A stretch of DNA of 64,000 nucleotides from an uncultured Bacilli bacterium (GTDB lineage Bacteria > Bacillota_I > Bacilli_A > RF39 > UBA660): the NCBI GenBank assembly GCA_947598285.1, contig CANQFE010000001.1:13705-77704 (forward strand). The letters run 5' to 3'. The notes beneath the pieces are model-generated. The model saw nothing but the letters and a program-made list of their open reading frames with translations, had not been told where the DNA came from and ran no database searches. Position numbers and translations under genes: made by a program. Positions within the stretch are counted from its first letter, which is position 1. The number at the start of each line of letters is the position of its first letter. Positions 1,357 to 64,000 of the stretch are shown piece by piece.

Positions 1357-1386
1357 CATATACAGATTAACAGGAGGTTAATATAG

Positions 1387-1980: not shown

Positions 1981-2017
1981 CATATTTTAAGAGTTGAAAA
2001 AAGTTAACTAATAGTAT

Positions 2018-2057
2018 ATACTAGTGATTGGAAATATCTGATCACTAGTATTTTTAT
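2018..2057 (+). terminator. rho-independent terminator
   Basis: 11-bp stem ATACTAGTGAT / ATCACTAGTAT with a 12-nt loop, followed by TTTTTAT. Confidence 0.7.
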
Positions 2058-2969: not shown

Positions 2970-3053
2970 TAAAATTAGTTACGTTAAACAAAAACTTATA
3001 GCATTAGGTGAATCATTTTTTGAACATTATATTCTAGAGAATTATATTTATGA

Positions 3054-3824: not shown

Positions 3825-3842
3825 CCTAACTGGAAAGAAGTT

Positions 3843-3872
3843 CCCACCGTTTATAAACGGTGGGGGGGGGGG
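3843..3872. repeat. 22-bp perfect palindrome (CCCACCGTTTATAAACGGTGGG) immediately followed by a G11 homopolymer
   Basis: Read directly from the sequence. Intergenic, between the HE remnant and the 3956 gene. Confidence 0.8.
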
Positions 3873-3955
3873 TATATTACTGGTAATTATAAGGTATCAA
3901 GAATGCAATAAATTGTATAAATATATATGTAAGTATACATAGGAGGATATAGATA

Positions 3956-4771
3956 ATGCATATATTAACTGAAGATAACCGTAATCAATTTATAGCTAAA
4001 TCTAAGTCCTCCACTAAAGGTAATGAACGATTTAAAAGAAGAACTAAGTCACAAATTCAAAATACTGTTCAAGCCATGAATGCTATTGATATGGATAAGT
4101 TATTTAAAAAAGATATCTTAACAATAGATATTCCTGTTCATGGTGAAACAGATAATTATAAAGTTAAAATATCATACGTAGGATTTTTAGATTTAGTTAA
4201 AAAGGAAGTGCAACGTTCTGGAATATGCACTTTAAGAGAAGTTTCTCGTGCAGCCATTAATGCATTCAATAGTAATGATATTTTTATAAATTGCAGTTGT
4301 CCCGATTATAGATATCGTTATAATTATTGGCGTAGTAAACAAGGACAAAATAGCGCAGAACCAGAAAATAGACCTTCTAATATTACAAATCCTCATGATA
4401 AATTAGGCAGTAGTTGTAAACATGTGTTATTAGTATTAAGTAATAATTCTTGGGTCTTAAGAGTTGCAAGAGTTATTTGGGCATATATCAATTATATGGA
4501 AAAGCATTATAAAAAATTATATGCCAATATTATTTATCCGGCTATATATGATAAAGAATATGAAGAGCCGTATCAATTGTCTTTTGATGACATGGAAGAC
4601 AACGATACACTTGATAGTGAAAAAGATATTATGGATAAAGCCGTTTCTTATAATCAACAAAGAACACGATTTCAAAAAGGAAATACTCAAGGTGTTAGAT
4701 TTGCATCAAGTAATAAATCAAATAATGACCAAATTTCAATACTTTCTGATATGCCTGATAATGAAAATTAA
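3956..4771 (+). CDS. hypothetical protein with SWIM-type zinc finger (CxCx(n)CxH)
   Basis: Motif …INCSCPDYRYRYNYW…SSCKHVLLV… matches the SWIM CxC…CxH pattern. Ribosome-binding site TAGGAGGA upstream. Confidence 0.45.
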   Translation: MHILTEDNRNQFIAKSKSSTKGNERFKRRTKSQIQNTVQAMNAIDMDKLFKKDILTIDIPVHGETDNYKVKISYVGFLDLVKKEVQRSGICTLREVSRAAINAFNSNDIFINCSCPDYRYRYNYWRSKQGQNSAEPENRPSNITNPHDKLGSSCKHVLLVLSNNSWVLRVARVIWAYINYMEKHYKKLYANIIYPAIYDKEYEEPYQLSFDDMEDNDTLDSEKDIMDKAVSYNQQRTRFQKGNTQGVRFASSNKSNNDQISILSDMPDNEN

Positions 4772-4823
4772 ATACTTAAAATTATGGTGTCTTGTATTAT
4801 ATTATATAATTATTATATAAGGA

Positions 4824-5588
4824 GTGAAACTTGTGGATAATTACACAATCGCTGAAGAATTTGAATTACCATCAAAAGGGAAAGTATATTCTCAAAAAGT
4901 AAATCCAATTGTTAAATTAAAATCAATGACTACAACGCAAGAGATGCGGCGACTTTCACCATCGGAAAGGCCTTATAAAGCAATGTGTGACATTATAGAC
5001 GAGTGTTTTGTTGAAAGTCCCGGCATTTCTTCATATGATATGTGTTTAGCTGATTATCAGTATTGTCTTATTAACTTAAGAATTGCTACATATGGAACCA
5101 GATACGATATTCAAACATCTTGTCCTTATTGTGGGAATACAGTTTATGAAAAAATTGATCTTGGAAATATGGATGTTAAATATTGTGACTTACAAGATTT
5201 AAATTCATTGTTTGAATTCGAGTTACCAAGAACAAAAAAGAAGATTAAAATAAATATTCAAACTCCAAGAATTATTGACGACGTAACAGTGCAAAATAAA
5301 GCCTTACAAAAAAAGTCAAAAGGTCAAGCAATTGATTCTTCGCTGCTTTTTAATATTGTTTCGTTAATTGAAACAATTGATGGACATGAATATGATCCAA
5401 TTCAAAAAGAGGACTTTGTAAGACAGTTACCAATGATGGACACTAACTACATCGTAAAAAAAGTTAATAAGTTAGTAGAAAGTTTTGGGGTAAATATGCA
5501 AATAGAGCATACCTGTCCTACTTGTGGGTTAGATTATAATAGCACCTTTCGCATCAACGGTGAATTTTTTGGACCCAACATTGACTGA
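4824..5588 (+). CDS. zinc-ribbon protein (CPYCGN…CPTCGL); candidate tail assembly chaperone, upstream partner of an overlapping ORF pair
   Basis: Two CxxC pairs. AAGGAG ribosome-binding site at 4818-4823, so the GTG at 4833 is the more likely start. Its 3' end overlaps the 5560-5796 ORF, which lies in the +1 frame, directly upstream of the tape-measure gene. Confidence 0.45.
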   Translation: MKLVDNYTIAEEFELPSKGKVYSQKVNPIVKLKSMTTTQEMRRLSPSERPYKAMCDIIDECFVESPGISSYDMCLADYQYCLINLRIATYGTRYDIQTSCPYCGNTVYEKIDLGNMDVKYCDLQDLNSLFEFELPRTKKKIKINIQTPRIIDDVTVQNKALQKKSKGQAIDSSLLFNIVSLIETIDGHEYDPIQKEDFVRQLPMMDTNYIVKKVNKLVESFGVNMQIEHTCPTCGLDYNSTFRINGEFFGPNID

Positions 5589-5796
5589 GGACGGTCGTCC
5601 GTATGGTCCGGTTAGATTAAAAGAAATAATTCGTGAGAGATATGAAATTTCAAAACGTATAAATACCTCTTATAATGATATTGGAGATATAACTCCAACC
5701 GAACGAGCATACTTATTAGAGTTTGCTTTAGATGATATCAAACAACAAAATAAAATAATTGAAGACGCAAATCGTAAAGTAAAATCTAAAAAGTAA
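5560..5796 (+). CDS. small ORF in +1 frame overlapping the 3' end of the 4824-5588 ORF; possible frameshift extension (chaperone gpG/gpGT-like arrangement)
   Basis: No ribosome-binding site of its own. Begins inside the T-rich stretch GAA TTT TTT GGA of the upstream ORF. Ends 14 nt before the tape-measure start. Confidence 0.35.
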   Translation: MNFLDPTLTEDGRPYGPVRLKEIIRERYEISKRINTSYNDIGDITPTERAYLLEFALDDIKQQNKIIEDANRKVKSKK

Positions 5797-5810
5797 AGGA
5801 GGGTGGTTAA

Positions 5811-8744
5811 ATGGCTAATGATTTTCAAAACCAAGTATCTTCACGCGGTTCATCTGGTGGTAACAATGTCAACGGTAGTGGCACAAGTGAAATTTCTGAT
5901 ATTTTAAAAGGTATTGGTTTTGATTTTAATACATATATAAAAGATCAACGTGACTCTTTAGCTAAGATGGCTGGAATGCAACAAAAGTTTTTAGAAGTTA
6001 TGTCAAAAAACGAAGAAATTGCAAATCTTAAAAATATTCAGAAAAAGTTAGAAGCTGAAAATTTATCAAATGAACAACGAATTGAATTAGAAACAAAGCG
6101 TCAACAGATTCTTGACCGTATGGTTATGGAGTCTTATAATACCGTTCATCAGTATCGAGAAAATCTAGATAATAGATATAATAAATCTCGTTCGATGAAG
6201 GAAAGAGCTACTTTAGCCAGACAATCCTCTATTGAATTAGAAGTTCATAAAGTTGCTATTCGTAAAAAATATAATGAAGAATTGAAAGCAGCTGCTGGTA
6301 ATAGTGTCAAACAAAAAGAGATTCTCGAAAAACAAGCAGACGAGCTTAGAACAATAAACGAAGAGCAAGCAATTGCAGATGACCAGTCGAAAAAATATAA
6401 TAGAATTAATAAAGCTCTAAAATTTACCGGAATGCAGTCTTCCGACGAACGGGAGCAGGAAAGAAAAGAACAGCAAGCTAGAAGATCTTCAAGATTAAAT
6501 GAGATTAATGAAGAGTTAGAAGAAATTGCACTATCTTATGATTCTTTAACTGATGAAGAAAAAAGAAATGCAGAGCAACGAGAATCACAACTTAAAGAAG
6601 AGCGAACACATTTAGAAGCGTTAAGTGAAAAAGAAACAGAACTAAGTAAAAAAAGAGAAGAAAATTTTGTAAAACTTGAAAATAGTGTAAACCAAGCATA
6701 TGAAAAGATGTTTACTTTACTAACAGAAAATGTTGGTAAAGTAAATGCTCGTTTACAAGGTTCTGGTCTTACATGGGAATCAACAACAGATCTTATTACA
6801 ACAAACCTTTCAATAAATCCATTTGTTAAAACAGAAAATGTAATAAATAAATTAGTTGAAGCTACCAATTTAGGTATTGCATATAACCTCGAGCAACGCG
6901 CATTTTTAGCTACAATTTCGGAAAAAATTGCTAGTACATTTAATGCCTTCGATTCAAATTTATTAAGATTAATAAAATTACAACAGGCAGATTCGACTGC
7001 TGCAAGATTAGGTATTGAATCTAGTTTAACTAAATTCTTAAATAGCATGTATGAAGATACAAGCTATCTATCAGATTTATCAAGCAGCGTTGCTGGTGCT
7101 ATTATTGATGCTAATGCACAGCTTGGACGTAATGCATCAGCAGAATTTGAATATACTGTTCAAAAATGGTTAGGTTCATTAAGCTCACTTGGAATGAGTA
7201 GTAATACCGTTACTAATATTGCACAAGGCTTAAACTACTTAGCAACAGGTGATGTTACTAGTTTAAGTAGTAACACGTCTTTACAAACATTATTTGCAAT
7301 GTCTGCAAATAGAGCTGGATTAAGTTATGCATCGTTGCTAACCAATGGATTAAATGCTTCTGATACAAATAAGTTGTTACAGAGCATGGTTGAGTATTTA
7401 AAAGAAATTGCAGAAAATGCTGATAACCAGGTCGTAAAAGGTGCTTACGGAAATATCCTCGGAATGTCTCTTTCAGATTTCCGTTCTATAACTAATTTAA
7501 CCTCCTCAGATATACAGACAATTGCAGGAAATCAACTAACTTACGAGAACTTAATTAACGAAGTTAATAATCAATTATCATTTTCAAATTTAATGAGCAG
7601 ATCTAATATTTCTGAAATGTTAAATACTGCTTATTCAAATGCACTGCTTGGTGTAGCAAGTGATTTTACAAGTAATCCAGCATTATATGCCATGCGACAA
7701 ACGTTAATGTTCTTAGCTGGTGAAGGAACTGACATTAATATTCCATTCGTTAATGCAGCTGGATTCGGTTTGGATTTAAATACAACAGTTGGGGACCTTG
7801 CAAGAATGGGCCTTGGAATTACGCAAGGATTAGGCTTAGTAGTTAATATATTACAAGGTTTAAGCGCTAGTGGTGGCCTTGACTTGGGTAGTTGGAATGC
7901 AAGAGAAACAACCCGTAGAGGGAATATTGGTAATCTATTATCAACTGTTATAGGTGGAACGTCAACAAGCACTTATGTTAGTAATACTAATCAAAGTGAT
8001 ATGACGAATCAAACTTTAAGTCGAGCGGTTGACGATTCAGAAGAAACCAAGAAAATTACAAATAAAAACACACAAGACGATGCAAAATCAGCAGAAAATG
8101 CGTATGAAGCATTAACGTCAGCATCTTCAAAACATGGTAATGGAAATGAATTCTTTTGGGTTAAAGACGCCTTACTTGCTGCGGTATATGATACTTCGAA
8201 TGGCGGTTCAATTAGAACGATTGATAGAAACTTATCAAATCTTTTTACAACAGTTTTTGGTAATCAGTCTGTTGTTGGTAAAGGATTTGTTAAGTCGTTA
8301 ATGTTTACTGACGGAACAATTCCAGTTGATGTTAGAAATAATTATATTAAAGTAGCAATTTCATCTGCAGATAGCGTTCCAATTTCAATAAAAGCAACGG
8401 ATGCACTTCCTGTTATTATTAGAAGTAGTGATACAACATTTAAAATTGCTGCTGAATCACTAAATTCATTAAAACAAAATTCAGCACCACAAACAGTAAC
8501 TATTGCGTCCACAAGTTCGGCAATTACGATTAATTCAAAGGACATAGAGAATGGCGTAAAAGCTGCTATTCTTGCACTTATTGGAAGCGAATCCGAAGAC
8601 GATAGATTATCTAGGTTCCTTGACAATGCGTCTGATGATACTAAAGGTATTCCAATAAAAGTTAGCTCTACACCAACGACAAATAACTTAAATGTAATTG
8701 TAAAAAATTCAGGTACAGAAAAGATTCCAATTACATCTAGATAA
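5811..8744 (+). CDS. tail tape measure protein
   Basis: 977 aa. N-terminal coiled-coil rich in E/K/R, then a long Ser/Thr/Gly/Ala-rich low-complexity middle and C-terminal region typical of tape measure proteins. Strong ribosome-binding site AAAGGAGG. Confidence 0.75.
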   Translation: MANDFQNQVSSRGSSGGNNVNGSGTSEISDILKGIGFDFNTYIKDQRDSLAKMAGMQQKFLEVMSKNEEIANLKNIQKKLEAENLSNEQRIELETKRQQILDRMVMESYNTVHQYRENLDNRYNKSRSMKERATLARQSSIELEVHKVAIRKKYNEELKAAAGNSVKQKEILEKQADELRTINEEQAIADDQSKKYNRINKALKFTGMQSSDEREQERKEQQARRSSRLNEINEELEEIALSYDSLTDEEKRNAEQRESQLKEERTHLEALSEKETELSKKREENFVKLENSVNQAYEKMFTLLTENVGKVNARLQGSGLTWESTTDLITTNLSINPFVKTENVINKLVEATNLGIAYNLEQRAFLATISEKIASTFNAFDSNLLRLIKLQQADSTAARLGIESSLTKFLNSMYEDTSYLSDLSSSVAGAIIDANAQLGRNASAEFEYTVQKWLGSLSSLGMSSNTVTNIAQGLNYLATGDVTSLSSNTSLQTLFAMSANRAGLSYASLLTNGLNASDTNKLLQSMVEYLKEIAENADNQVVKGAYGNILGMSLSDFRSITNLTSSDIQTIAGNQLTYENLINEVNNQLSFSNLMSRSNISEMLNTAYSNALLGVASDFTSNPALYAMRQTLMFLAGEGTDINIPFVNAAGFGLDLNTTVGDLARMGLGITQGLGLVVNILQGLSASGGLDLGSWNARETTRRGNIGNLLSTVIGGTSTSTYVSNTNQSDMTNQTLSRAVDDSEETKKITNKNTQDDAKSAENAYEALTSASSKHGNGNEFFWVKDALLAAVYDTSNGGSIRTIDRNLSNLFTTVFGNQSVVGKGFVKSLMFTDGTIPVDVRNNYIKVAISSADSVPISIKATDALPVIIRSSDTTFKIAAESLNSLKQNSAPQTVTIASTSSAITINSKDIENGVKAAILALIGSESEDDRLSRFLDNASDDTKGIPIKVSSTPTTNNLNVIVKNSGTEKIPITSR

Positions 8745-51810: not shown

Positions 51811-52996
51811 TATATATTCAGATTATAAAAGAATAGATGGAGAAACAGACCAACAATTCGAAATCCGTTGTTATAAACAGAAGTTAATGTATAACGACAT
51901 TACTTGGGTTCAATTAGCACGGATATTAAATGAAGAACTTGGGTTAAATCATACGGAATCAAGATATAGAAAAAAGTGTTATTCAATAACACTTACAGAT
52001 ACAGAAGAACACGATGAAATAACAATTGCAGAAAATCAACTAAAAAATTTGCTAATGGAAATAAAAAAAGAAAAAATAAAGTTAGCAGATGAAAGAACAC
52101 AAAACAATGCACTTATTCGTAGAATGGCAAGAGAGGATACAATACGAGAAATTGCCAGAGAATATGCACAAGTAATGTGTGATAAAAAAATCTTAAACCA
52201 CACACCAATTACGATAAATAAAGATTCTTCAAAAATTGGAATTTTAATGTTATCAGATTGGCATTATGGACTACAAATAGAAAATGTATTTAATACATAT
52301 AACGAGAACGTATTTATAAGTCGAATTAATCGACTAAAAGATGAAGTAACGAGAATTATAAAAGAAAATAAACTTGAATATCTACACGTTGTAAATCTTT
52401 CAGATTTAATTGCAGGAAGAATTCACTTATCAATTAGACTGCAAAGTAGATGTGACGTAATTTCACAAACAATGATGGTAAGTGAAACGTTAGCAGAATT
52501 ATTAAATTACTTTTCATGTTTATGTACAGTATATTATCACGACGTATTGGATAATCATTCAAGATTAGAACCACGTAAAGAGGATTCATTAGATTTAGAG
52601 TCTCTAGTAAGAATCATCCCGTGGTATTTAAAAGAAAGACTAAAAGACAATCAAGATATAATTTTTGATAAAGAATGTTTAAGTACAGACATTGCAACAT
52701 TTAAAGTATTTAATTTTAATGTTGCAGCATTACATGGACATAAAGATAAACCAAGTAAAGTTGTTGATAATGTAACAAATATGTTAGGTAGTAAACATGA
52801 TTTAATACTTACAGCACATAGACACCACTTTGCAGCAGAAGAAGAGCACAATTGCATAAGAGTATCAAATGGTTGTTTACTTGGTGTTGATGATTATGCG
52901 GAGAATTTAAGGCTATTAAGTAAGCCTTCACAAACATTTATTATTTCAACACCGGACAGCGTATGTAAAGAGATTCATAGAATCGATTTAATGTAA
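51803..52996 (+). CDS. calcineurin-like metallophosphoesterase with N-terminal ~150-aa extension
   Basis: Motifs SDWHYG (DxH), SDLIAG (GD-like), DNHS (GNH-like), LHGHKD (GH), TAHRHHF (GHxH). Confidence 0.55.
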   Translation: MNNIYSDYKRIDGETDQQFEIRCYKQKLMYNDITWVQLARILNEELGLNHTESRYRKKCYSITLTDTEEHDEITIAENQLKNLLMEIKKEKIKLADERTQNNALIRRMAREDTIREIAREYAQVMCDKKILNHTPITINKDSSKIGILMLSDWHYGLQIENVFNTYNENVFISRINRLKDEVTRIIKENKLEYLHVVNLSDLIAGRIHLSIRLQSRCDVISQTMMVSETLAELLNYFSCLCTVYYHDVLDNHSRLEPRKEDSLDLESLVRIIPWYLKERLKDNQDIIFDKECLSTDIATFKVFNFNVAALHGHKDKPSKVVDNVTNMLGSKHDLILTAHRHHFAAEEEHNCIRVSNGCLLGVDDYAENLRLLSKPSQTFIISTPDSVCKEIHRIDLM

Positions 52997-53094
52997 GAAC
53001 TAAGCTATGCTTTATATATATACAAATCTATAAGTCATATCAGGGTAAGTCCTTCAAAAAGGTAAGTCCCTAGTAAGTAAGGAGATTATTGAGA

Positions 53095-53526
53095 ATGAAA
53101 TTTTATAGTGACAAAACAAAAAAACTTTATGAAACAGAGGACGAATTAAAAGCTGCAGAAGCTGAGCTACAAGAGCTAACAGATAGCCGAGAATTAACGA
53201 AAAAACAGTTAGCAAAAAAAGTAGAAGCAGCTCGAGACAGAGAAAAGCTAGCAGAAGAGGCTTATTCAAAAACAGAAAAACAAGTAGAAGAGCTTATTGA
53301 AAACACAAAGAAACAAATAGATGAATTATATGATAAGCCGACAAAAGAACTTCGTGAAGCACAGGAAGAAAAATTAAAAGCAATTCGTGAATTTAATGAA
53401 AAATTCGGTGCATATACAGTATCTTATTCTGCTGAAGAAATTGATAAAGAGTTTAATCGTTTATTAAAGAGTATAACAAATTGGGATATATTTAAACATA
53501 ATTTGTTTAGACCCTGGATTTTCTAA
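53095..53526 (+). CDS. hypothetical charged coiled-coil protein
   Basis: Ribosome-binding site AAGGAG at 53079-53084 and ATG at 53095. Followed by a strong terminator. Confidence 0.45.
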   Translation: MKFYSDKTKKLYETEDELKAAEAELQELTDSRELTKKQLAKKVEAARDREKLAEEAYSKTEKQVEELIENTKKQIDELYDKPTKELREAQEEKLKAIREFNEKFGAYTVSYSAEEIDKEFNRLLKSITNWDIFKHNLFRPWIF

Positions 53527-53587
53527 TTAGTTTCAAGCATAGCTTAGTTTTTAACATATACATTGAGTATGTAACTGATTGTTAATA

Positions 53588-53630
53588 AAGATGTCTGTTA
53601 ACTTAAATCGGTTAACAGACATCTTTTTAT
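53588..53630 (+). terminator. rho-independent terminator
   Basis: 15-bp perfect stem AAGATGTCTGTTAAC / GTTAACAGACATCTT with loop TTAAATCG, followed by TTTTT. Confidence 0.8.
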
Positions 53631-53644
53631 AGGGGTGTGTAAAA

Positions 53645-53974
53645 GTGGCAAAAAAACATTTTGATGAATATTATAATTCCATATATAAACAACTTATAAG
53701 ACTTCAAGATTCATTGGATGGTATGTCGGAAGATGTTTCTAAAAAACTTATTGAACCAGAACGATTAGAACAACTAAAGAAAACAATTCAGCCAATTAAA
53801 TCAAGCTATGATATGTTGACATACGTAAAATATTTACTTGATATGCCAAATCGTTCTTCTAAGACTAAAAAATATAAAAATCAGCAGACGAAAGTTTTAA
53901 AACAAACTGAGCAATATACTGCGGAGAATATTCAAAAACAAAATCAACAAACAATAAAGAAAATTACGTTATAG
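53645..53974 (+). CDS. hypothetical protein
   Basis: 109 aa. GTG start. Confidence 0.4.
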   Translation: MAKKHFDEYYNSIYKQLIRLQDSLDGMSEDVSKKLIEPERLEQLKKTIQPIKSSYDMLTYVKYLLDMPNRSSKTKKYKNQQTKVLKQTEQYTAENIQKQNQQTIKKITL

Positions 53975-53985
53975 AGAGAAATAAA

Positions 53986-54255
53986 ATGAGAAACTTTCTA
54001 AACCATCTTGGTATTTACAATGATGGAACACAGTTAAATGGTAAATATGTTATAAACTTTAATAATATAGATGAATTTAATAAAGTTTTTAAAAAACTAG
54101 ATAAATCAAACGAAATTGAAGAATCAGAAGAATCTTCAATTCTAAATTCTTCAGTGTCAACTATTGTATATAATAATGATGATTATTTAATTATACTAAG
54201 TGCTAATTTTGATACTGACGAATATACATTAACGATTCAAGATATTGGTAGGTAA
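53986..54255 (+). CDS. hypothetical protein
   Basis: 89 aa. Confidence 0.4.
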   Translation: MRNFLNHLGIYNDGTQLNGKYVINFNNIDEFNKVFKKLDKSNEIEESEESSILNSSVSTIVYNNDDYLIILSANFDTDEYTLTIQDIGR

Positions 54256-54262
54256 CTAAAAG

Positions 54263-55009
54263 ATGAAATGTAAAGTTATTAAATTTAATCCTAATGAAAT
54301 TAACCATAAATATATATGTGAGATTGAAACAGATTATGATAAATTATCAGAAATTTCACAAGAAGTTAATTTAAAAAAGGATGGAGAAGAAACGCGGTCC
54401 ATTATTTTAAAATTAAAAAACACTATTCGTGCTAATGAAAATATGGTCGGATTATCAGCTCCTCAAATTGGATTTAATAAACGAATCATTTGTATTAACT
54501 TTAATGGAGATATTCGCACACTAATTAATCCACTAATTACATCTCGTGAAGGATGGACACTACATAGAGAAAGTTGTCATTCTATTCCAAATAAAGAATT
54601 CCTTATTCATAGGCACACAAACATTTCAGTAACTTATACAACCCCTCTTGGACGTATAGAAATAGTCTCACTAATAGGACTCGCTGCATTTATTGCACAA
54701 CACCAAATTGAACACTTAGATGGAATTCTTCTAAGTGATAATGGACTAGAAGTTGACGAGATGTTTAATAATGCTTCAGAAGAAGAACAAGATGAAGTTA
54801 TAAAGATGTATTTAGAATCTTTGGATCTTCGTGCAAAAGAATACAATCTTGCAATCGAAGAAGATGAAGATGCAAAGAAGTTACGAGATGAAGCTAAATT
54901 CATTAACGCAATTGAGAATGGTGACGTTAAGATTGAATATGTTCCATGGACTCAAGAAGAAATTGATAAATACGAAAGTAGTCAGGAAAAAGAAGACTTA
55001 GACAAATAA
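54263..55009 (+). CDS. def: peptide deformylase-like metalloprotein with acidic C-terminal extension
   Basis: Motif 1 GLSAPQIG (GxGxAAxQ), motif 2 RESCHS (EGCLS-like, metal Cys), motif 3 QHQIEHLDG (HExxH). Confidence 0.6.
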   Translation: MKCKVIKFNPNEINHKYICEIETDYDKLSEISQEVNLKKDGEETRSIILKLKNTIRANENMVGLSAPQIGFNKRIICINFNGDIRTLINPLITSREGWTLHRESCHSIPNKEFLIHRHTNISVTYTTPLGRIEIVSLIGLAAFIAQHQIEHLDGILLSDNGLEVDEMFNNASEEEQDEVIKMYLESLDLRAKEYNLAIEEDEDAKKLRDEAKFINAIENGDVKIEYVPWTQEEIDKYESSQEKEDLDK

Positions 55010-55024
55010 ACGAGGTACTACACA

Positions 55025-55576
55025 ATGTCTACACTAAATATTCCAATACAGTTAAATGCTGGACAATCTGCTCCAACGACACTGTATCCAAGAGAATTAT
55101 TTGTACAATATAATAGTAATAATATCCCCGTTAACTTATGGATAGGTCCAAATGCTACTAAAAATACAAACGCCGATCAGAAAAAAGGAACCCCACAAAA
55201 AATAGTGGTATCAAGTTCTAATTCTGCTAATTCATTTAAAAATGGAGATACTTTCTTATCAAATAATTCGTATTCATCAGATTCATCTGGAGGTGCTTCT
55301 GGGAACATAACAAGGCTTGGTAACTTCAATGTTGTCAATCAAGGAACTTCAACTAATCGTAAATATAAGTGGACTACAATTGTTTCAGGGTCGGTAGATT
55401 CTACTAGTATTCAGGAAGCAACAACAAGTACAAATATAGATAATTATAATACCTTTCAATATATCAACATAAATCAATTAGGCCGTTTAGTTGCAAAACG
55501 TAATGGTGCGGTTTTTGGTAGTGCCTTTCCAAGTAATCCAAGCGATGGACAAGTTTTCTTTAAAATTGTTACATAA
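55025..55576 (+). CDS. virion/fiber-associated protein
   Basis: 183 aa, S/N/T-rich. Confidence 0.4.
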   Translation: MSTLNIPIQLNAGQSAPTTLYPRELFVQYNSNNIPVNLWIGPNATKNTNADQKKGTPQKIVVSSSNSANSFKNGDTFLSNNSYSSDSSGGASGNITRLGNFNVVNQGTSTNRKYKWTTIVSGSVDSTSIQEATTSTNIDNYNTFQYININQLGRLVAKRNGAVFGSAFPSNPSDGQVFFKIVT

Positions 55577-55592
55577 GTAAGGGTGTAGACAT

Positions 55593-57362
55593 ATGGGACT
55601 AACTACGCAAGCATACCACTGGATTGATGGAAATGATAATAATTTTTTAAGCAGTAAATATCCAATTCGATGGATAAATAATACTGGAAGTACACGTAAA
55701 ATTATTAGTATTTCTGCAAAAATGGCTTCAGTTGATACTCGTAGTTCAACGGTAACAAAAAACAACGTAGGCGTATGTATTGAAAATGCAACCGGGGCGT
55801 ATGCCTATGGAACTGGTAATCCATATAAGGTACAGTTAGGAGCTAGAATATTTTTAGGGGATGTGTTTACCGGAACTGAATACATGTCAGAAAATGAACC
55901 AGAAATAAGCGAACGTGTTGGGGTACACCCTTGGTCGCAGGATGGAAAATCTGGTGTTACTGCTAATTATACGAATATCTCTTCTATAACAACCTGGACA
56001 TTTAAGACATTTGAAGTACGAAGTGGTTATACAGTTAAATTTTATTTTAAAGTTACTAAAAAGTCTGATAGTCTTGTTATAACTCTTGATTTTACTAACA
56101 TTGATGATGCGGCTATTATGCCACCGGTGTGTACATTAACTTATGATGCTACTGGTGGAACTGGTGCACCAGTAGATCAATCTGCAGCAAAAGGTTCATT
56201 CGTTACTATATCATCACAAATTCCAAGTAAAACTAACTATAATTTTAAAAATTGGAGTTTAAATTCCACCGGAACATCATCGTCATATACTCCAGGTCAA
56301 TCTATACAATTAGACGATAATAAAACGTTATATGCTATTTGGGAAGATGCAAAATTAGATTTAACACTTGAACAATATAGAGTTGAAAAAACTACTCGTA
56401 CAACGGATCCATGGGATCTTTGTGCAATTATAAAAGCATCAAGTACCGCAACTGACTGGTCTTATAGATACAATGATGAAACTAACTATCGACTATATTC
56501 ATCAGCGAATACGTCGTCTATAACATATCGAATTCCACAAACTGCTGGTAAGATATATCGAATTTATTTTAGAGCAAGACGTGTAAATTCAACCGTTACT
56601 GGTGAAACTAGTGATTATGCTGAATATGACTTAGTATTACCAAAAATTAACCGCGCATCGGTTAATGTAACAGGTGCAAAGCAAGGCGATTTAACATTTA
56701 TAGCAGATAAGAAGGTTCAATGGGAATTTACAGGAACACTTAATGGTGCTACGATTCGAACTGTAAATGCTATAGATGCAGACGTTCCTGCAAACACGGA
56801 AGTTACGAGATCTGTTAATTTATGGTCAAATTCAAGTCTTGATTATACATTAAGAGTTAAACGATCCGATAATATATTTCTTACGGATTCTAAACAAATT
56901 CCAGTTAGTACTGTACCACTGGAATTAAATTTAAGTATAGACTCAGGTTATCCATTAGCAACTGTAGTTAAGTTAACATGTAAAGCCCCATCTAATGTAC
57001 AAGCGGATACTTGGAATTACGATTTGTGGAAAATCACTAAAGAAAATAATATTACTACTACAGTTCGTTTGGAGACAAATACGGCTATATCTGGTGGAAC
57101 AAATGCAGAGGTAAAATTAACACGTTCTAGCTTAATTCCTGGTATTTTATATAAAGCTAAATTTTATGCTACGGACAATCGTAATATTATAGCATCGTCA
57201 AACGAAGTTACATTTATTCCTACAGGTGGAATATATGTATATGACGAAACAACACAAAAAAATGTTTTATGTGGTGTATATATCTATAATAGTACAAAAG
57301 GTAAATGGGAAATTTACAATCCATATGTATATAATAACAATGAATGGAAAATATCAAATTAG
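55593..57362 (+). CDS. tail fiber / receptor-binding-like beta-rich protein
   Basis: 589 aa, T/S/N/Y-rich with predicted beta-strand repeats. Lies in a cluster with the poly-G fiber genes. Confidence 0.45.
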   Translation: MGLTTQAYHWIDGNDNNFLSSKYPIRWINNTGSTRKIISISAKMASVDTRSSTVTKNNVGVCIENATGAYAYGTGNPYKVQLGARIFLGDVFTGTEYMSENEPEISERVGVHPWSQDGKSGVTANYTNISSITTWTFKTFEVRSGYTVKFYFKVTKKSDSLVITLDFTNIDDAAIMPPVCTLTYDATGGTGAPVDQSAAKGSFVTISSQIPSKTNYNFKNWSLNSTGTSSSYTPGQSIQLDDNKTLYAIWEDAKLDLTLEQYRVEKTTRTTDPWDLCAIIKASSTATDWSYRYNDETNYRLYSSANTSSITYRIPQTAGKIYRIYFRARRVNSTVTGETSDYAEYDLVLPKINRASVNVTGAKQGDLTFIADKKVQWEFTGTLNGATIRTVNAIDADVPANTEVTRSVNLWSNSSLDYTLRVKRSDNIFLTDSKQIPVSTVPLELNLSIDSGYPLATVVKLTCKAPSNVQADTWNYDLWKITKENNITTTVRLETNTAISGGTNAEVKLTRSSLIPGILYKAKFYATDNRNIIASSNEVTFIPTGGIYVYDETTQKNVLCGVYIYNSTKGKWEIYNPYVYNNNEWKISN

Positions 57363-57374
57363 GAGTTGTGTAAT

Positions 57375-57917
57375 ATGAATAATGTGTATTTATCAGGGAT
57401 AATTAAAAATATAGAACCATCTCATTGTATTAATGGGATTCAATATAACAAAGCAAATATAATTATTCCAAGAGCAAAAGGAAAAGAAGATATAATTGTA
57501 TTAAAGTATAAAGAATTTACAAATAAGAATAATTATAAAGACGGAGATACAATATGTCTACTTGGAAATGTTCGTACGTATTCCATTCATCAACCAGACG
57601 GAACAGATAAAATATCAGTTTACGTATTTACTTATTTTGATAAACCAGAAGAAACGTTAGAAGATAATACTAATAAGTGCGAAATATCAGGACGAATATG
57701 TAAAATTAGTAATATAAGATATACAAAAGATAATAATCGAAATATTCATTTTATACTCGCAAATAATATAGAAAACGGAAATGGAAGACGATATTCAAGT
57801 TATATTCCTTGTATTGCATGGGGTAAGATAGCAGATTCATTATCTAAATTTTCAGTTAATACGCAACTTGAATTATTTGGAGAATTACACTCAAATAACT
57901 GTAAAAAAAAAATCTAA
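57375..57917 (+). CDS. tandem OB-fold (SSB-like) protein
   Basis: Two halves each resemble the bacterial SSB OB-fold: NNVYLSGIIKNIEP…LLGNVRTY and IHFILANN…IPCIAWGKIADSL…LELFGEL. ATG at 57375 after AGGAG. Confidence 0.4.
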   Translation: MNNVYLSGIIKNIEPSHCINGIQYNKANIIIPRAKGKEDIIVLKYKEFTNKNNYKDGDTICLLGNVRTYSIHQPDGTDKISVYVFTYFDKPEETLEDNTNKCEISGRICKISNIRYTKDNNRNIHFILANNIENGNGRRYSSYIPCIAWGKIADSLSKFSVNTQLELFGELHSNNCKKKI

Positions 57918-57975
57918 CAACAGATTTGGTACATGAATTATTAATAAAAGATTTTAAAGTATAACGAATAATATT

Positions 57976-58790
57976 ATGGCAAATTATATTTCACAAATTA
58001 AACTACCGAATGGTACAACGTATAATGTTCAAGATACTGAGAAGTTACCCCTAGGGGGGGGACAATAACTGGTTCGTTAACCATAAATGATGCAGTAATA
58101 GCAAACAACATTTATGGTAGTTTAAACAAAATTAATCTTACAGCAGATACTTATGATCAAAATACTTGGTATCCAGTGGTTGGAAATAAACTTGCGTACT
58201 CTAGATTTGGGTATACACATCTTTGTGTTGTACACGAATTAGATAACGATGTGCTGCCTTCATGGAGTACTCATGAACAAGGCTATTATTGCTTAACAGA
58301 AGTCTTAACTCAAGCGTCAGGTTGGGGAATGTCTTCAGGAACAACTATAATTCTTATAAACGATTGTTGTTGGATAAAAGATAATCTTAATCCTGTAGCA
58401 TATCGTCAAATGATGCATAGTTCATATCCCGTTTTTTATCTTAGAGGCGGTGGAATATACAATATTTATTCTAACGAGAATACAACTTGGACAGTTCATA
58501 CTTCGTTGTATGAACATTCACAAGATACAGTGCAGCCCGAAACTTCTTGTCCGTCAAATGTTAATCCTCCAGGAACAATTAAAACAAATATTAATGGAAT
58601 TGCTACTAAAGTTAGTTCAGCGTTAACTGTTGGTGGTAAAACTTATGATGGTTCTAAAGCAGTTACATTAACAGCAGCAGATTTAGGCGCATTAACAACA
58701 TCAACTGCAAGTACAACATACGCTACTAAAACAGAGATGAATGCCAAAAATGATAAAGCAAAAGTTGAAGGAGATATTCTAATATTATAA
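57976..58790 (+). CDS. receptor-binding/fiber-like gene interrupted by a G8 homopolymer tract (58054-58061); out of frame as sequenced, in frame with G9
   Basis: Upstream frame gives MANYISQIKLPNGTTYNVQDTEKLPLGGGQ*. The downstream frame is open from 58041 to 58790 (ORF-track ORF 58176-58790). Adding one G fuses the two frames. Confidence 0.55.
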
Positions 58791-58815
58791 TAATTTTAAT
58801 TGGAGGAAATTAGTA

Positions 58816-59404
58816 ATGGCTGAATTTATTAATCAAATTAAACTTCCCAATAATATTACATATGACATACAAGATCGTAATGCTCTTCCTCTATCTTCCG
58901 TAGTTCAAATTATGGGGGGGGGGGCAAACGACCCTCATGTCCCAAAAAGCAATTACGGATGAATTGAATAAAGTAGATACACAAGGAATAAATTTAGTCT
59001 GTAATAGTTTAGGAACACATGTAGCTAATACAGGCGTTTCAAGCGTTTTATTTCAATATACTTTACTCGAAGAAATTGAATTGAATGTTGACTATACGTT
59101 TACTTTATATGGAACCGGTGCTTTTAGAATTCATATAGGATTACCTAATGATCGAGGGTGGAATGATCCATACAGTGGAAGATTTGTAATCCCAGAAAGT
59201 AAAATTTTCAGTTTTACTGGTAGATTAACGTCATGGAATATGGGAGATGAACAAACCAAAAAAGACAATCTTGCACTATATTCTCAAAGCATTAATGCTA
59301 CGATTAATAAAATAAAAGTAGAAAGAGGTAACGTAATACATCCTATATGGAGTCCTTCTCCATTAGATATTAGAGTGTCAGACGATATATTAATTTTATT
59401 ATGA
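58816..59404 (+). CDS. paralogous receptor-binding/fiber-like gene interrupted by a G11 homopolymer tract (58914-58924); in frame with G10
   Basis: Upstream frame gives MAEFINQIKLPNNITYDIQDRNALPLSSVVQIMGGGANDPHVPKSNYG*. The downstream frame is open from 58904 to 59404. The N-terminus is paralogous to the 57976 gene. Confidence 0.55.
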
Positions 59405-59619
59405 TTGTATATTAAAATTAATATACAACAACAAAAATCATTTAGAGAGAATTATGTTAAATATTTGGAAAATTAATATTAAAGGAACAGAATGTGAAAT
59501 TTTAACCTCACATAAAAGACGTTCTCAACCACTAAGCAAAGCATAGGTGGTTGTGATATGTCATTTATACTGCACCCCCTTAATTTATAAAAAAAATTAT
59601 TTAAAGGAGTCTATATATT

Positions 59620-59949
59620 ATGGCAAGAAAAAGTACAAACACAATAACTTCAACAACTACATTAGAATCAACAATTATTCAAAATCCTGAAGCAGATCTT
59701 GGAAAAGAAATTTCTGAAACTGTAACAACTACAGAAAAACTCGTTGAGACTATTGTAACGCCAGAAGAGAAAGTGAATACAATTGTTGAAAAGAACTTAG
59801 ATAAAACACTAAAACAGGAACCAGCTGCTGAAGTTCAAGTAACAAAATCTACAGTAAATAAAGGTTCTAATATAAGTTCTAGTCATATACTTGTCCCATC
59901 GGACGAAATTCTTAAGACACCAAAAATTAGTCAAACATGGATTGGTTAA
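59620..59949 (+). CDS. hypothetical T/E-rich protein
   Basis: 109 aa. Ribosome-binding site AAAGGAG. Confidence 0.4.
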   Translation: MARKSTNTITSTTTLESTIIQNPEADLGKEISETVTTTEKLVETIVTPEEKVNTIVEKNLDKTLKQEPAAEVQVTKSTVNKGSNISSSHILVPSDEILKTPKISQTWIG

Positions 59950-59969
59950 AATAACAAAGGATAACTACA

Positions 59970-60179
59970 ATGATTGTAAATTCTGAAAGAATACTCGATT
60001 GGCGTGGAAAAGTTATTGGTCGTATAGAAACAGACCACGAAGGAAATAAATTCGTAAAAGATTTTTACGGAAGGGTAAAAGGTAAATATAATAAGAAAGC
60101 AAATATTACAACAGATTTTTATGGACGGAAAATTGCCAAGGGTGATCAATGTGGTCTTCTTTTAAACATGAATACGTAA
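59970..60179 (+). CDS. hypothetical small protein with internal duplicated DFYGR(V/K)K motif
   Basis: 69 aa. Ribosome-binding site AAAGGA. Confidence 0.35.
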   Translation: MIVNSERILDWRGKVIGRIETDHEGNKFVKDFYGRVKGKYNKKANITTDFYGRKIAKGDQCGLLLNMNT

Positions 60180-60191
60180 TAAAGGAATTAT

Positions 60192-60518
60192 ATGAAAGCT
60201 AAATTTGAAGACGACTTTGAATATGTTACTCGTAAGCCAAAAAAGAAATTTATAAGAAAGTATCAAGAAGAATTAGATACTCAGAAAGTTGAGGAACTTG
60301 CAAAAAAGTTAATACAACAATCTGTTGATTATAAAAATATATTTGGATATGAGCTTGAAAAGAACAATATTAGATGTATTTCTAAATGGAATAAACAATC
60401 AGAAGTATTTGTGTGTTATAAAAAACAAGATAATACGATTATAGAAACTAGACAAAAAACCTATCGTGAGTTCAATTGTGATAAGGCCGTTGAATACATA
60501 GATGAAATTACAAAATAA
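60192..60518 (+). CDS. hypothetical protein
   Basis: 108 aa. Followed by a T11 tract. Confidence 0.4.
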   Translation: MKAKFEDDFEYVTRKPKKKFIRKYQEELDTQKVEELAKKLIQQSVDYKNIFGYELEKNNIRCISKWNKQSEVFVCYKKQDNTIIETRQKTYREFNCDKAVEYIDEITK

Positions 60519-60629
60519 TCAACTTTAATTTGTTGATTATTTTTTTTTTTACTTTTGTGCTGAATTTAGTTGAATTTCTTCTAATTTGATATTATAATAT
60601 AATCATAAAAAGGAAAGGAAGAAATACAA

Positions 60630-61154
60630 ATGAAGAACGAAAAATTGTTAACTCTTCTCGCAGAAATTAAAAATGGAGTATATTTCAGGATTTCTTATAA
60701 GTCCGAAGTTCCACTTAGCAAGAAGAAACTCAAGGAAGCCAACTATGAAGAAGGGTCTTTCAAGATTATAAAGATCACTGAAGCAACCGTTCGCACTGGG
60801 ATACGCTACAGTAAGCTTCATAGAGTTATTGAAACTCTTAAAGATAGAGAAGAAAGTAAGACTCGTACAAACAACTACGAATGGGTTATTAAGAATAGGA
60901 TTAAACATAACATTGTAACAGGTAAAGATTATCTCACACTTGCAACATCCGTTCGTGGTGGACATGTTAGAACCATTTATGAAGTAACATGTAAAGACAA
61001 CCGCGTGTATTACTTTAGTAAAGACGAGTTATTACAGACTGATGTGAGTATGTTTATTCAAGACAGTTATTTTAATAGGTCAGAACACATTCCTTATTAC
61101 TGCGTGGATACTGATAACATTCTTACAATAAATCATGTGCCTGTAAAATTTTGA
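60630..61154 (+). CDS. hypothetical protein
   Basis: 174 aa. Ribosome-binding site AAAGGAAAGGAAG. Preceded by the GATATTATAATATAA promoter-like motif. Confidence 0.45.
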   Translation: MKNEKLLTLLAEIKNGVYFRISYKSEVPLSKKKLKEANYEEGSFKIIKITEATVRTGIRYSKLHRVIETLKDREESKTRTNNYEWVIKNRIKHNIVTGKDYLTLATSVRGGHVRTIYEVTCKDNRVYYFSKDELLQTDVSMFIQDSYFNRSEHIPYYCVDTDNILTINHVPVKF

Positions 61155-61231
61155 GTATCATTTAAGTTGTCTTTTTACGAAAATGATATTATAATATAAA
61201 CATAAGAAATAGAAGAAAGAGGTACAAGGAC

Positions 61232-61540
61232 GTGTTGCGGAAGGACGCTAAAGCAATTGCTAACAGATCGAATGAAATTAGAAAACTTCCAACTAAAGAA
61301 GATAAGATAGTGGAACTTACTAAATTGGTTGAGCAGTTCCACACAGAAAAATCCCGCTGGAGTGTGTCTGCAATTGTTGATGTAATAATCGAGTATTGGT
61401 CAGCAGAGAATTACTATGATTATGTGTGGCAGACATATCCAGATGATAACGAAAGTTTAATGTTTGCTGGTGGTCAGAAATCTGCTCTTCAAGAACTTTT
61501 AATGGGTAATGGATGGAGTGCAGCAGCAGGTATTCTCTAG
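61232..61540 (+). CDS. hypothetical protein
   Basis: 102 aa. GTG start. Preceded by the same promoter-like motif. Confidence 0.4.
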   Translation: MLRKDAKAIANRSNEIRKLPTKEDKIVELTKLVEQFHTEKSRWSVSAIVDVIIEYWSAENYYDYVWQTYPDDNESLMFAGGQKSALQELLMGNGWSAAAGIL

Positions 61541-61640
61541 GTTTAGTGTTAATCAGTATGGAGGACGTTTGATATAACACTTGAAATGAAACACAAGATA
61601 AAACGTGTAACTGAAAAATAAAGAAAGGAAGACTTTTAAA

Positions 61641-62621
61641 ATGGCACACGAACTCGAAAATATGTTTTATGTTTCGAATGAACAGAATGGAAGATTTAAG
61701 CCTTGGCACGGCCTTGGAACTTCTGTTGAAGAAGCTCTAAATTCAAAAGAAGCACTTCGTCTTTCAGGACTAGATTGGAAAGTAGACTCAAAACCTCTTT
61801 TTGTAGATGGGATAGAAGTTCCTGGATACAAAGCAAATGTTCGTATTACAGATGGAGCAATCCTCGATGTTGTAAGCGACAGATATAAGATTGTACAGAA
61901 TGAAGAAGCGTTTGACTTTACCGATGGTCTTATTGGTGGAGATGTTCGTTACGAAACCGCGGGCTCATTGTTTGGTGGGAAAAGAACATTTATCCTCGCA
62001 AGACTTCCAAAAGTTCAGATTCTTGGAGATGACGTGTGTCCTTATATTTGCTTTACAAATGGTTTTAATAAAGCATATTCAATTAAGGCTGTTTGTACAC
62101 CCGTTCGCGTTGTTTGTAATAATACATTAAGTTTTGCTCTTAATAACGCACAACGTAGTTGGTCTACAAAGCATGTTGGGGACATGACAAGCAAGTTAGA
62201 ACAGGCTCGTGAATCTCTTGGTCTTGCACAAAAGTATATGAAAGAACTTGAGGTAACTGCGGAAAAGCTCGCAGAAACGAAAGTAAGTGATGATGAAGTA
62301 CGTTCCGTAATTAATAATATTTTTGTTTCGAATGAAAAGGATTCTGAACGTAAACTTAAGAATATTGAAGATCAGAAAGATAACTTCATGATTTGCATGT
62401 TAGCTCCTGATATTGCTAAGTTCAGAGGCACTGCTTGGGGAACTGTTCAAGCTGCGTCGGATTATTTCACACACAAGGCTCCAAAGCGGGCAACAGAGAG
62501 TTATAGAGAAAGAAATTTTGCTAATATTCTTGATGGCAATATTTACTTTGATAGAATCTTCTTGGAAATGATGAATAAAATCGCGGAAAAGAAACAGTTC
62601 AGCGTGAGGGCTTCTGTATGA
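61641..62621 (+). CDS. DUF932-like phage/plasmid protein
   Basis: 326 aa, …FKPWHGLGTSVEEALNSKEALRLSGLDWKV… resembles the phage/plasmid-like protein family TIGR03299/DUF932. This is a recollection, not a search result. Confidence 0.35.
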   Translation: MAHELENMFYVSNEQNGRFKPWHGLGTSVEEALNSKEALRLSGLDWKVDSKPLFVDGIEVPGYKANVRITDGAILDVVSDRYKIVQNEEAFDFTDGLIGGDVRYETAGSLFGGKRTFILARLPKVQILGDDVCPYICFTNGFNKAYSIKAVCTPVRVVCNNTLSFALNNAQRSWSTKHVGDMTSKLEQARESLGLAQKYMKELEVTAEKLAETKVSDDEVRSVINNIFVSNEKDSERKLKNIEDQKDNFMICMLAPDIAKFRGTAWGTVQAASDYFTHKAPKRATESYRERNFANILDGNIYFDRIFLEMMNKIAEKKQFSVRASV

Positions 62622-62857
62622 GTCCCCTTCAAGCTATTAAAGCTAAGTGCCTCGATTGTTGTTGTGATAGTCGACCTGAAGTGCAATTATGTCCATGTAC
62701 AGATTGTCCTTTACATATATTTAGGTTTGGAAGGTTGCCTAAAGAACATAATAAAAATCGTACAAAACGAGTTCTTACAGAAGAACAACGGGCTGCTGCG
62801 ATTGAAAGATTAGCAAAAGCACGAGAAGCAAGGAAAGCTCAACAAAAGAATAATTAG
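62618..62857 (+). CDS. small Cys-rich zinc-ribbon protein
   Basis: CLDCCCDSRPEVQLCPCTDCPLH. Translationally coupled to the previous gene. Confidence 0.4.
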   Translation: MSPLQAIKAKCLDCCCDSRPEVQLCPCTDCPLHIFRFGRLPKEHNKNRTKRVLTEEQRAAAIERLAKAREARKAQQKNN

Positions 62858-63075
62858 GACTATATTGTATATAATAATATAAGTTCCCAGTAAGCGTCTT
62901 CAAAGATCTGCTGGGATCTTATATTTTATAGAAGCCTTAAAGGCTATAGATAAACTGCTGAATAACAAATAACTTGATAAAACGAGATCTAAAGAATCTA
63001 TTCAGGATATAACTAGCGATGACAGATTTACTCTTATTAGGTTAAGAATAAATCTTATATTCGAAAGGAGTACAA

Positions 63076-63924
63076 ATGAATATTTCGAAGATGTCCCAAC
63101 ACTACAAGGCAAAATCTAAGCAAATAGTGCAGATAAGTCTTGTAATAGTAATATTATTTATTATTTTTCTAGCGGTAGAGATTTATAATAGTAATAAACA
63201 CGAACAACAAATAAAGGAACTAAATTCGTCTATTGACGAAGAAGTTCAGAAAGTAGAAAACTTAAATGAAGAAATAGAAAAATATAAAGAAGCCATAATA
63301 ACTCTGCAAAGAGAACGGAATGCACTTATAGCAGAACATAAAGAAGAAGTTAATAATTACGATTTTGAGCTAGAAGAATTTCAAGATAAACTTAACGAAG
63401 CAAACCAACTATGTAAAGAATATGAAGAGAAGTTAAATGAGAGTATAAATAAGTTTAATGAGTTAAGTGAAAAACTTGAAAAATATAATTTACTAATAGA
63501 AAAAGCAGATGCGGATGGATATAGTGAATCCTTAAAAGTGTGGCTACAGCTTAAAAGTATGGGGCTAAATGACTATGTAGCGAGCGGCATTATGGGAAAT
63601 ATAATGGCCGAAGTTGGTGGACACACACTTGATTTATCTGAATGGAGAAATTGTTCTACTGGAGTTTATTATGGTATTTTCCAAATGGCTGGATCTAGAA
63701 AAACAAGATTATTAAATGACTTTGGAACTACTATTGATGATCAATTACGTTTCTTCTCTGTAGAATTATATGAATTAATTCCAGAAGGAAGTTCTTTCTA
63801 TTCCTTAACAGACGAAAAAGAAGCTGCTTTATATTTTGCAAAAAAGTATGAAAGATGTGCAAGCTATACATATGAGGTAAGACAAAGAAATGCAACAAAA
63901 GCATTACAATATTTTACTACATAA
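63076..63924 (+). CDS. membrane-anchored coiled-coil protein with C-terminal lysozyme-like/tail-lysozyme domain
   Basis: N-terminal hydrophobic helix (IVQISLVIVILFIIFLAV), central heptad coiled-coil, C-terminal …GIMGNIMAEVGGHT…GIFQMAG… resembling the lysozyme-like domain signature. Confidence 0.5.
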   Translation: MNISKMSQHYKAKSKQIVQISLVIVILFIIFLAVEIYNSNKHEQQIKELNSSIDEEVQKVENLNEEIEKYKEAIITLQRERNALIAEHKEEVNNYDFELEEFQDKLNEANQLCKEYEEKLNESINKFNELSEKLEKYNLLIEKADADGYSESLKVWLQLKSMGLNDYVASGIMGNIMAEVGGHTLDLSEWRNCSTGVYYGIFQMAGSRKTRLLNDFGTTIDDQLRFFSVELYELIPEGSSFYSLTDEKEAALYFAKKYERCASYTYEVRQRNATKALQYFTT

Positions 63925-64000
63925 AATTTAAAGTATAACGAAATGATTTTATCAAATTAAATCAGCAGATAAAGGTAAAAGCTAGTTATAAAAGAGGTAA

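Follow-up and report, generated by a model that had tools for sequence, protein, structure and literature searches.

Poly-G tracts in two adjacent paralogous genes of an uncultured gut phage as candidate ON/OFF switches of fibre-type proteins

Why should a gene in an AT-rich phage genome carry, directly behind its 26th codon, an uninterrupted run of eight G residues that cuts its reading frame in two? The gene in question, here called gene A, occupies positions 57976-58790 of a 64-kb stretch of contig CANQFE010000001.1 (hereafter the window, meaning the whole stretch that was analysed), which belongs to a gut phage that is uncultured, has a genome of about 137 kb and carries T4-like baseplate genes. 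A second gene with a tract of its own, gene B, lies at 58816-59404. In what follows, labels of the form L### and P#### denote recovered loci and proteins, respectively. Together with L014 and L008, the window covers about 74 kb of the phage genome. Our preferred interpretation, to which we assign a probability of roughly 60%, is that genes A and B form a pair of hypermutable poly-G contingency loci, i.e., slipped-strand ON/OFF switches, each independent of the other. For gene B such switching is shown in the form of alleles, and for gene A we infer it.

Frame structure of genes A and B and the lengths of their tracts

Gene A opens with an N-terminal module of 26 codons (MANYISQIKLPNGTTYNVQDTEKLPL, 57976-58053, forward strand, as are all features of both genes), which runs into the G8 homopolymer at 58054-58061, the putative switch of this gene. 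The tract makes up codons 27-29 (GGG GGG GGA) and is followed by CAA and by a TAA stop at 58066-58068, so that the gene as assembled is OFF and yields a 30-amino-acid (aa) open reading frame (ORF; MANYISQIKLPNGTTYNVQDTEKLPLGGGQ and stop, 57976-58068). The downstream frame (58062-58790) comprises 242 codons and a stop, and encodes a TITGSLTIN linker, a beta-rich fibre domain and a C-terminus ending in ...GDILIL; the conserved fibre domain corresponds to residues of about 50-220 of the repaired protein. The chance that a frame of this length is open by accident is about 2e-10, given a stop probability of 0.088 per codon. Rebuilding gene A in silico with tracts of G4 to G11 gave a 271-aa protein for G9 and a 270-aa protein for G6, and products of 29-38 aa for all other lengths; the junction of the G9 product reads LPLGGGTITGSL, in the wider context …LPLGGGTITGSLTIN…. 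These results bear out the preliminary description of the locus, according to which the G8 tract ends an N-terminal ORF shortly after, the shifted frame behind it is long and open, and a G9 or G6 tract would restore a protein of ~271 aa. A perfect 10-bp palindrome (CCCCTAGGGG, 58050-58059) comprises the start of the tract and the preceding bases, and a hairpin with the first G residues might influence slippage.

The same description had missed both the tract of gene B and a third, intergenic tract. Gene B begins with MAEFINQIKLPNNITYDIQDRNALPL; over 26 residues, this start shares 61.5% identity with that of gene A, and within the 64 kb the N-terminal module is confined to these two genes. Its N-terminal part (MAEFINQIKLPNNITYDIQDRNALPLSSVVQIM, 58816-58913) has a strong GGAGG ribosome-binding site upstream and leads into a G11 homopolymer at 58914-58924, the switch of gene B, which is OFF as assembled and would be ON at G10 or G13. 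Behind it, the downstream frame (58925-59404; 159 codons and a stop, open by chance at P about 4e-7) encodes an orphan domain whose end, ...DDILILL, resembles that of gene A. The corresponding in silico series gave 194, 195 and 196 aa for G7, G10 and G13, and 47-50 aa for other lengths. As assembled, gene A needs one G more and gene B one G less, each being a single slippage step away from ON; the predicted junction peptides of the ON forms are …LPLGGGTITGSLTINDAVIANNIYGSLNK for gene A and …IMGGG(G)QTTLMSQK for gene B. Another conceivable use of the tracts, as Shine-Dalgarno mimics for an internal start, is implausible for gene A (where the first in-frame start lies 115 nucleotides, nt, downstream) and weakly possible for gene B, whose tract is followed by the ATG at 58937 at a distance of 12 nt.

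Long G runs are exceptional in this sequence. With a GC content of 30.0%, the window contains only four G runs of at least 6 (G11 at 3862, G6 at 29774, G8 at 58054 and G11 at 58914) and no C run of at least 6; of G runs of at least 8, ~0.04 would be expected from composition, compared with three present, all on the coding strand, in keeping with the earlier statement that the tract of gene A is too long for chance at 30% GC. Two of these three runs occupy the same architectural position in the adjacent paralogues A and B. At the same time, glycine is encoded by GGG less often than by any other codon (58 of 721, or 8%), a Gly-Gly-Gly tripeptide is absent from the 39 other long ORFs (15,144 codons), and the second such tripeptide of gene A itself (LRGGGIY) is spelled GGC GGT GGA. 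Thus, the homopolymer is not a by-product of glycine coding.

The most direct evidence comes from a comparison of tract lengths, at the level of assembly consensus, among assemblies recovered from ENA (ERZ27249462, locus L001, and ERZ27249252, locus L105) and from Logan (ERR10663698-701). An exact 204-aa fragment of the gene A downstream frame (P0001) is found on six contigs. Over 52816-64000, the region of genes A and B, the recovered assemblies match the window with 0 mismatches once the tract length of gene B is set aside, and therefore represent one strain, within which the comparison is made; substitutions are limited to two, both located in the contig of ERZ27249252 spanning positions 1-5803 of the window. 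The tract of gene B is G11 in the window, G12 in ERZ27249462 (OFF), where it is the sole difference from the window in 4,754 nt, and G13 in ERZ27249252 (ON), where it is the sole difference in 11,187 nt. The ON allele encodes an intact 196-aa protein (P0179), retrieved by searching for an exact match to the ON sequence that had been predicted. As a control, the intergenic G11 at 3862 keeps its length in each of the five assemblies in which it is covered, among them ERZ27249252 with its G13 in gene B, and A10 and T11 runs are likewise constant across assemblies. Three lengths at gene B versus none besides G11 at a control of the same length argue for real variation, and tract-length switching of gene B is shown at the allele level. 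The gene B tract coincides with contig breaks in three assemblies and the intergenic G11 with a break in one, a ratio (3/3 vs. 1/4) that is suggestive and comes from too few cases to serve as evidence of heterogeneity.

Fibre-type relatives and a gut prophage family of similar design

By homology and predicted fold, gene A encodes a fibre-type protein. Its downstream frame gave 597 HMMER matches, nearly all within long fibre-like proteins, with 34-37% identity to the gp16 tail fibre of a Ruminococcus gnavus phage and to a gut phage contig. An AlphaFold2 model reached block-mean pLDDT values of 76-97 for residues 50-190, and the top Foldseek matches of gene A were tail and tail-fibre proteins (E 1e-16 to 1e-10). 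In prophages, the central domain of gene A belongs to the last tail gene ahead of the lysis genes. Judging from this homology, the product of gene A may bind a receptor.

The N-terminal module, with the consensus MA.(I/Y)(S/K/N)QIKLP.(N/G).TY(D/N)(I/V).D for residues 1-20, heads variable C-terminal domains and recurs at the start of fibre-type genes in low-GC phages. It opens intact fibre-type genes in L022, L101, L102, L103 and P0018; of these, P0018 (225 aa) and the L022 fibre (789 aa, on a 160-kb viral contig with 35% GC) combine the module with the central domain of gene A, in which the L022 fibre ends. Module-bearing genes number three in tandem in L101, two in L103 and one in L102, all of them continuous ORFs that follow baseplate-like genes. 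In the homologues P0015 and P0025, the junction LPLGGGTITGSL of repaired gene A has its match in ALPLTGGTIIGAL, with …ALPLTGGTIIGALNF… just before the same central domain, and no homopolymer is present in the module-bearing genes of L101, L102, L103 or P0018. Since the module heads continuous ORFs in relatives, the two frames of gene A belong to one gene, as do those of gene B, and the tract was inserted secondarily between module and distal domain. A comparison with related genomes, which the preliminary description had proposed as a check, thus produced intact genes in the module-bearing relatives.

Some further details of these relatives may be recorded here. The L022 fibre (4251-6617, N-terminus MATIRQIKVKDITYDIS) contains a G9 run of its own at 4641-4649, which is in frame and encodes AGGGN at about residue 131. 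The tandem arrays lie at 1951-5256 in L101 (reverse-complement) and at 4876-6423 in L103, their genes starting with MA(D/E)I(S/K)QI(K/Q/T)(L/F)P…; in L101, …DG..(L/M)I(L/F)…, an ending much like that of A and B, closes the gene at 2772-3299 as well as the baseplate-like gene just upstream of the array. Two of the five DNA-pattern matches to the N-terminus (L100 and L104) were rejected as chance matches.

A similar design is found in an unrelated family of gut prophages. Single-sequence queries of IMG/VR with gene A, its 589-aa neighbour and its SSB-like neighbour returned no relatives, whereas a query with an alignment of gene A's domain succeeded and provided 80 fibre loci. Of these 80, 36 have G or C runs of at least 8, which vary in length and occupy two conserved sites ahead of the fibre domain. 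One of them is a poly-C run (C7-C14) that lies ~24-51 codons into a gene of ~186 aa (MALGNMNIGVDSEF…TPPPTDSDEVV…). Where the flanks are nearly identical, the frame is continuous with C8 and C11 (ON) and split with C7, C9, C10 and C12 (OFF), one C10 allele being restored by a second insertion 11 nt downstream; in most (but not all) OFF alleles the downstream frame is open for ~150-160 codons. Loci L012 and L013 differ over 11,018 nt by nothing except C11 vs. C10 (5461-5471 and 5462-5471, respectively), the poly-C run is found in 32 further loci among L025-L096 (at about 3380-3680), and three of the six locus pairs with at most 5 mismatches in 2,400 nt of flank differ in tract length. The other position is a poly-G run (G8-G12, including in-frame and out-of-frame lengths) nine codons into a Gp10_C baseplate-type gene (MAIGDLNIA-Gn-(L/V)EAYPIGSIY), located at about 2460-2700 among L025-L096 (e.g., 2619-2628 in L046).

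The resemblance to genes A and B is one of layout: a short N-terminal module (MALG.MN.. or MAIGDLNIA), a G or C run and a domain of ~150-160 aa, in tract genes that adjoin a fibre with the central domain of gene A and have both ON and OFF lengths in near-identical genomes. The tract-bearing proteins of the prophages have no homology to A or B, which points to convergence on a design of short shared N-terminal module, homopolymer and distal domain. Unlike the phage of the window, these elements are temperate, have 45% GC, carry one of their tracts as poly-C on the coding strand and contain in-frame TAG codons. As regards the latter, several occur in L012 (6001-7830) and L046 (2300-3000), mostly where homologues have Trp, and the true terminator is TAA; they may reflect amber recoding of late genes or pseudogenisation. 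We found no description of this C/G tract design in the literature searched.

Proposed mechanism and rival explanations

In the mechanism that we propose, the G run just behind the shared module would gain or lose a G during DNA replication by slipped-strand mispairing; one length in three would fuse the two frames into a full fibre, and the other two would leave a stub of 30-50 aa. Genes A and B would each flip heritably, reversibly and independently of the other, so that as many as four fibre genotypes could coexist in a lysate, as a form of bet-hedging against variation of the host surface. The shared 26-residue module would be the part that docks to the virion, the distal domains being different, and, being present in both genes, it points to a common attachment site for the two products. 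The G8 tract of gene A presumably switches as well, at a lower rate because it is shorter. The products would be virion-borne receptor-binding proteins, and their switching might change the host range. A more far-reaching proposal is that A and B act as a two-bit combinatorial switch whose distal domains compete for one docking site and that homopolymer-gated fibre genes are widespread, albeit undescribed, in phages and prophages of gut Firmicutes; taken jointly, we offer these ideas tentatively, and think them somewhat likelier to fail than to hold.

Several observations weigh against the contingency-locus interpretation. The tract of gene A is G8 in all five assemblies (the window, L001, L002, L003 and L105), no ON form of gene A (271 or 270 aa) was found among about 15 billion proteins, and its upstream bases contain no obvious Shine-Dalgarno sequence. 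Hence, the phase-variation switch postulated in the preliminary description is borne out by the neighbouring gene B, which is polymorphic with an ON allele, rather than by the G8 that had been flagged. Both genes are OFF in the window, as decaying pseudogenes would look, and both lie ~36 kb from the main tail and baseplate module, so that the fibre/receptor-binding cluster envisaged earlier shrinks locally to two paralogues and possibly two upstream genes. For gene B, no homologue other than its own fragment was detected in 5.8 billion clusters and there was no Pfam or PHROG match, its single-sequence AlphaFold2 model was unusable (pLDDT 33), and no record of its 155-aa fragment was found by sequence or identifier look-up. 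Finally, the SPAdes coverage is about 4.4-4.8x, and the consensus length of a long G run is therefore based on few reads and may include sequencing error.

This last point is the basis for supposing that the true tract lengths are in frame and that the apparent frameshifts are errors of low-coverage sequencing or assembly; long G runs are indeed error-prone on Illumina instruments, and the contig breaks at the gene B tract (three assemblies) and at the intergenic G11 (one) would fit. Nevertheless, random miscalls would hardly leave the G8 of gene A identical in five assemblies, nor the intergenic G11 at the same length in five out of five while gene B shows three lengths, in part in the same samples, and the A10 and T11 runs are stable as well; we consider this explanation very improbable. 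Its special case, an Illumina poly-G artefact at read ends, which had been named in the preliminary description as a possible refutation, can be discarded for gene A, since the tract is internal, has coherent coding on both flanks and is G8 in five assemblies. A real but non-adaptive origin would be the recent inactivation of gene A, and perhaps of gene B, through the gain or loss of 1 nt in a G run that was already present. The OFF state of both genes in the window and of gene A in every assembly, without an ON record, agrees with such decay, as does their location outside the main tail module. However, the downstream frames are fully open over all of their 242 and 159 codons, gene A keeps every invariant residue of its family (PSWSTH, RGGG-Y) in the central domain, the tracts sit at the same position in adjacent paralogues and consist of the rarest glycine codon, and an intact allele of gene B exists in another assembly of the same strain. 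Pseudogene decay without switching thus appears unlikely to us.

We judge it equally unlikely that the DNA stays at G8 and G11 and that a fixed fraction of full-length product arises by recoding, i.e., by slippage of RNA polymerase or by ribosomal frameshifting. In favour of recoding, G GGG GGA (58056-58062) forms an in-register X XXY YYZ heptamer where slippage by -1 would lead to the LPLGGGTITGSL product that G9 encodes, the G8 of gene A has the same length in five assemblies, as expected of a programmed site, and rescue of frameshifted genes by polymerase slippage on homopolymers is established for A/T runs. G runs, on the other hand, are poorer substrates for transcriptional slippage than A/T runs, and all-G heptamers are not known to be efficient slippery sites, Y = G being non-canonical. 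Moreover, gene A requires a net gain of 1 nt (-1 frameshift) and gene B a net loss of 1 nt (+1 frameshift), and these opposite shifts mean that no single directional mechanism serves both. The hairpin downstream of the gene A tract begins 19 nt after it (an 18-nt gap, compared with the usual 5-9 nt) and is unremarkable (z = -1.74, with 10 of 200 shuffles folding as well), the region downstream of the gene B tract has no significant structure (z = +0.81), and no Rfam match lies near any tract. The site is not conserved, the module-bearing relatives (L101, L102, L103 and P0018) being without it, and in gene B it is the DNA itself that changes in length, up to an in-frame allele.

Genomic setting, known systems and significance

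The window starts with tail and baseplate genes (1-21.7 kb), in which T4-like baseplate and gp13 families are represented, continues with replication genes (helicase, DnaB, family A polymerase, clamp and SbcC) and then reaches a small island with, in this order, a peptide deformylase, a 183-aa protein of unknown function, a 589-aa protein with Flg_new repeats, an SSB-like gene, A and B. The deformylase (54263-55009; PHROG 2890, E 3e-25; Pfam Pep_deformylase) has a long acidic C-terminal extension. The only A10 of the window (57903-57912) falls into the last codons of the SSB-like gene (…NNCKKKI and stop), where A9 or A11 would add 6 or 16 residues, respectively; the T11 at 60540-60550 is intergenic, ahead of the gene at 60630. 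Homing-endonuclease-like insertions lie among the tail genes (343-3824): genes of 337 aa (343-1356) and 141 aa (3399-3824), the latter a truncated paralogue of the former's C-terminal half, and between them a gene with NUMOD3 repeats (2058-2969). The third long tract, the intergenic G11 (3862-3872, forward strand), stands directly 3' of a hairpin with a 7-bp stem (CCCACCG-TTTATAAA-CGGTGGG), has a complementary C-rich arm ahead of it and lies 84 nt upstream of the gene at 3956-4771; a role in promoter spacing or a structural role is possible. A scan for promoters and terminators was uninformative, with fewer promoter-like sites than in shuffled sequences. The phage DNA polymerase is most similar to those of human-gut phage fragments (55%), followed by those of Clostridium phages (41%); a member of the Clostridia (a Gram-positive gut anaerobe) is the probable host, and positions 55000-60000 of the window have no nucleotide match among deposited phages.

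The closest known precedent is that of the Campylobacter Fletchervirus phages, which carry hypermutable G7-G11 tracts in genes of receptor-binding proteins (Sorensen et al., 2021, Cell Rep 35:109214). According to later summaries of that work, the two systems share intragenic G runs in genes of receptor-binding or fibre type (the G8 and G11 described here fall within 7-11), an AT-rich genome, frame switching, several tract genes per genome and a proposed role in generating phenotypic diversity within the phage population. Genes A and B differ in belonging to another phage lineage with a likely Gram-positive gut anaerobe as host, and in having tracts that directly follow the shared N-terminal module of two paralogues; they would accordingly represent poly-G contingency loci in a new phage lineage and probably in a new host phylum. 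With the contingency loci of bacteria (Campylobacter, Neisseria, Haemophilus), they would have in common slippage of coding homopolymers, reversible ON/OFF states, non-random tracts and genes of surface interaction, the difference being that A and B belong to a virus, that the phage's own family A polymerase replicates them, and that selection would act on virions instead of cells.

Contingency loci have recently been reported in phages T2 and T4, with reversible high-frequency homopolymer mutation as a bet-hedge (Gomez, Barrick and Waters, bioRxiv 10.1101/2025.10.21.683753). These loci likewise consist of homopolymer runs in phage genes, but are mostly A6-A9 runs, in genes directed against host defences (e.g., agt and rIIA). 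The coliphage survey in the same preprint (bioRxiv 10.1101/2025.10.21.683753) found homopolymers under-represented (0.77x) in tail fibres, in contrast to the long G runs in fibre-type genes of a 30% GC genome described here, and also pointed out unstudied poly-G tracts in BPP-1 and in a PB1-like baseplate gene. Diversity-generating retroelements (Mtd of Bordetella phage BPP-1) and invertible fibre segments (Gin of phage Mu) similarly provide alternative receptor-binding proteins within one population; they do so by reverse transcription and site-specific recombination, whereas A and B would rely on tract length only, with neither a reverse transcriptase nor an invertase. A 2025 review refers to phase-variable phage receptor-binding proteins as "an exceptional case", known only from Campylobacter phages, and our own literature search turned up no account of fibre genes with such tracts from phages of gut Firmicutes.

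Practical consequences would concern both annotation and application. Tract genes are mis-annotated as fragments (A and B having been called as ORFs of 204 aa and 155 aa) and metagenome assemblies are broken, and genomes given as a single consensus would miss alternative fibre states in the prediction of host range as well as in therapeutic phage stocks. Overall, if the proposed switching is real, an independent case in a gut phage together with a family of gut prophages would make mutational ON/OFF fibres a general hedge of phages against variable host surfaces.

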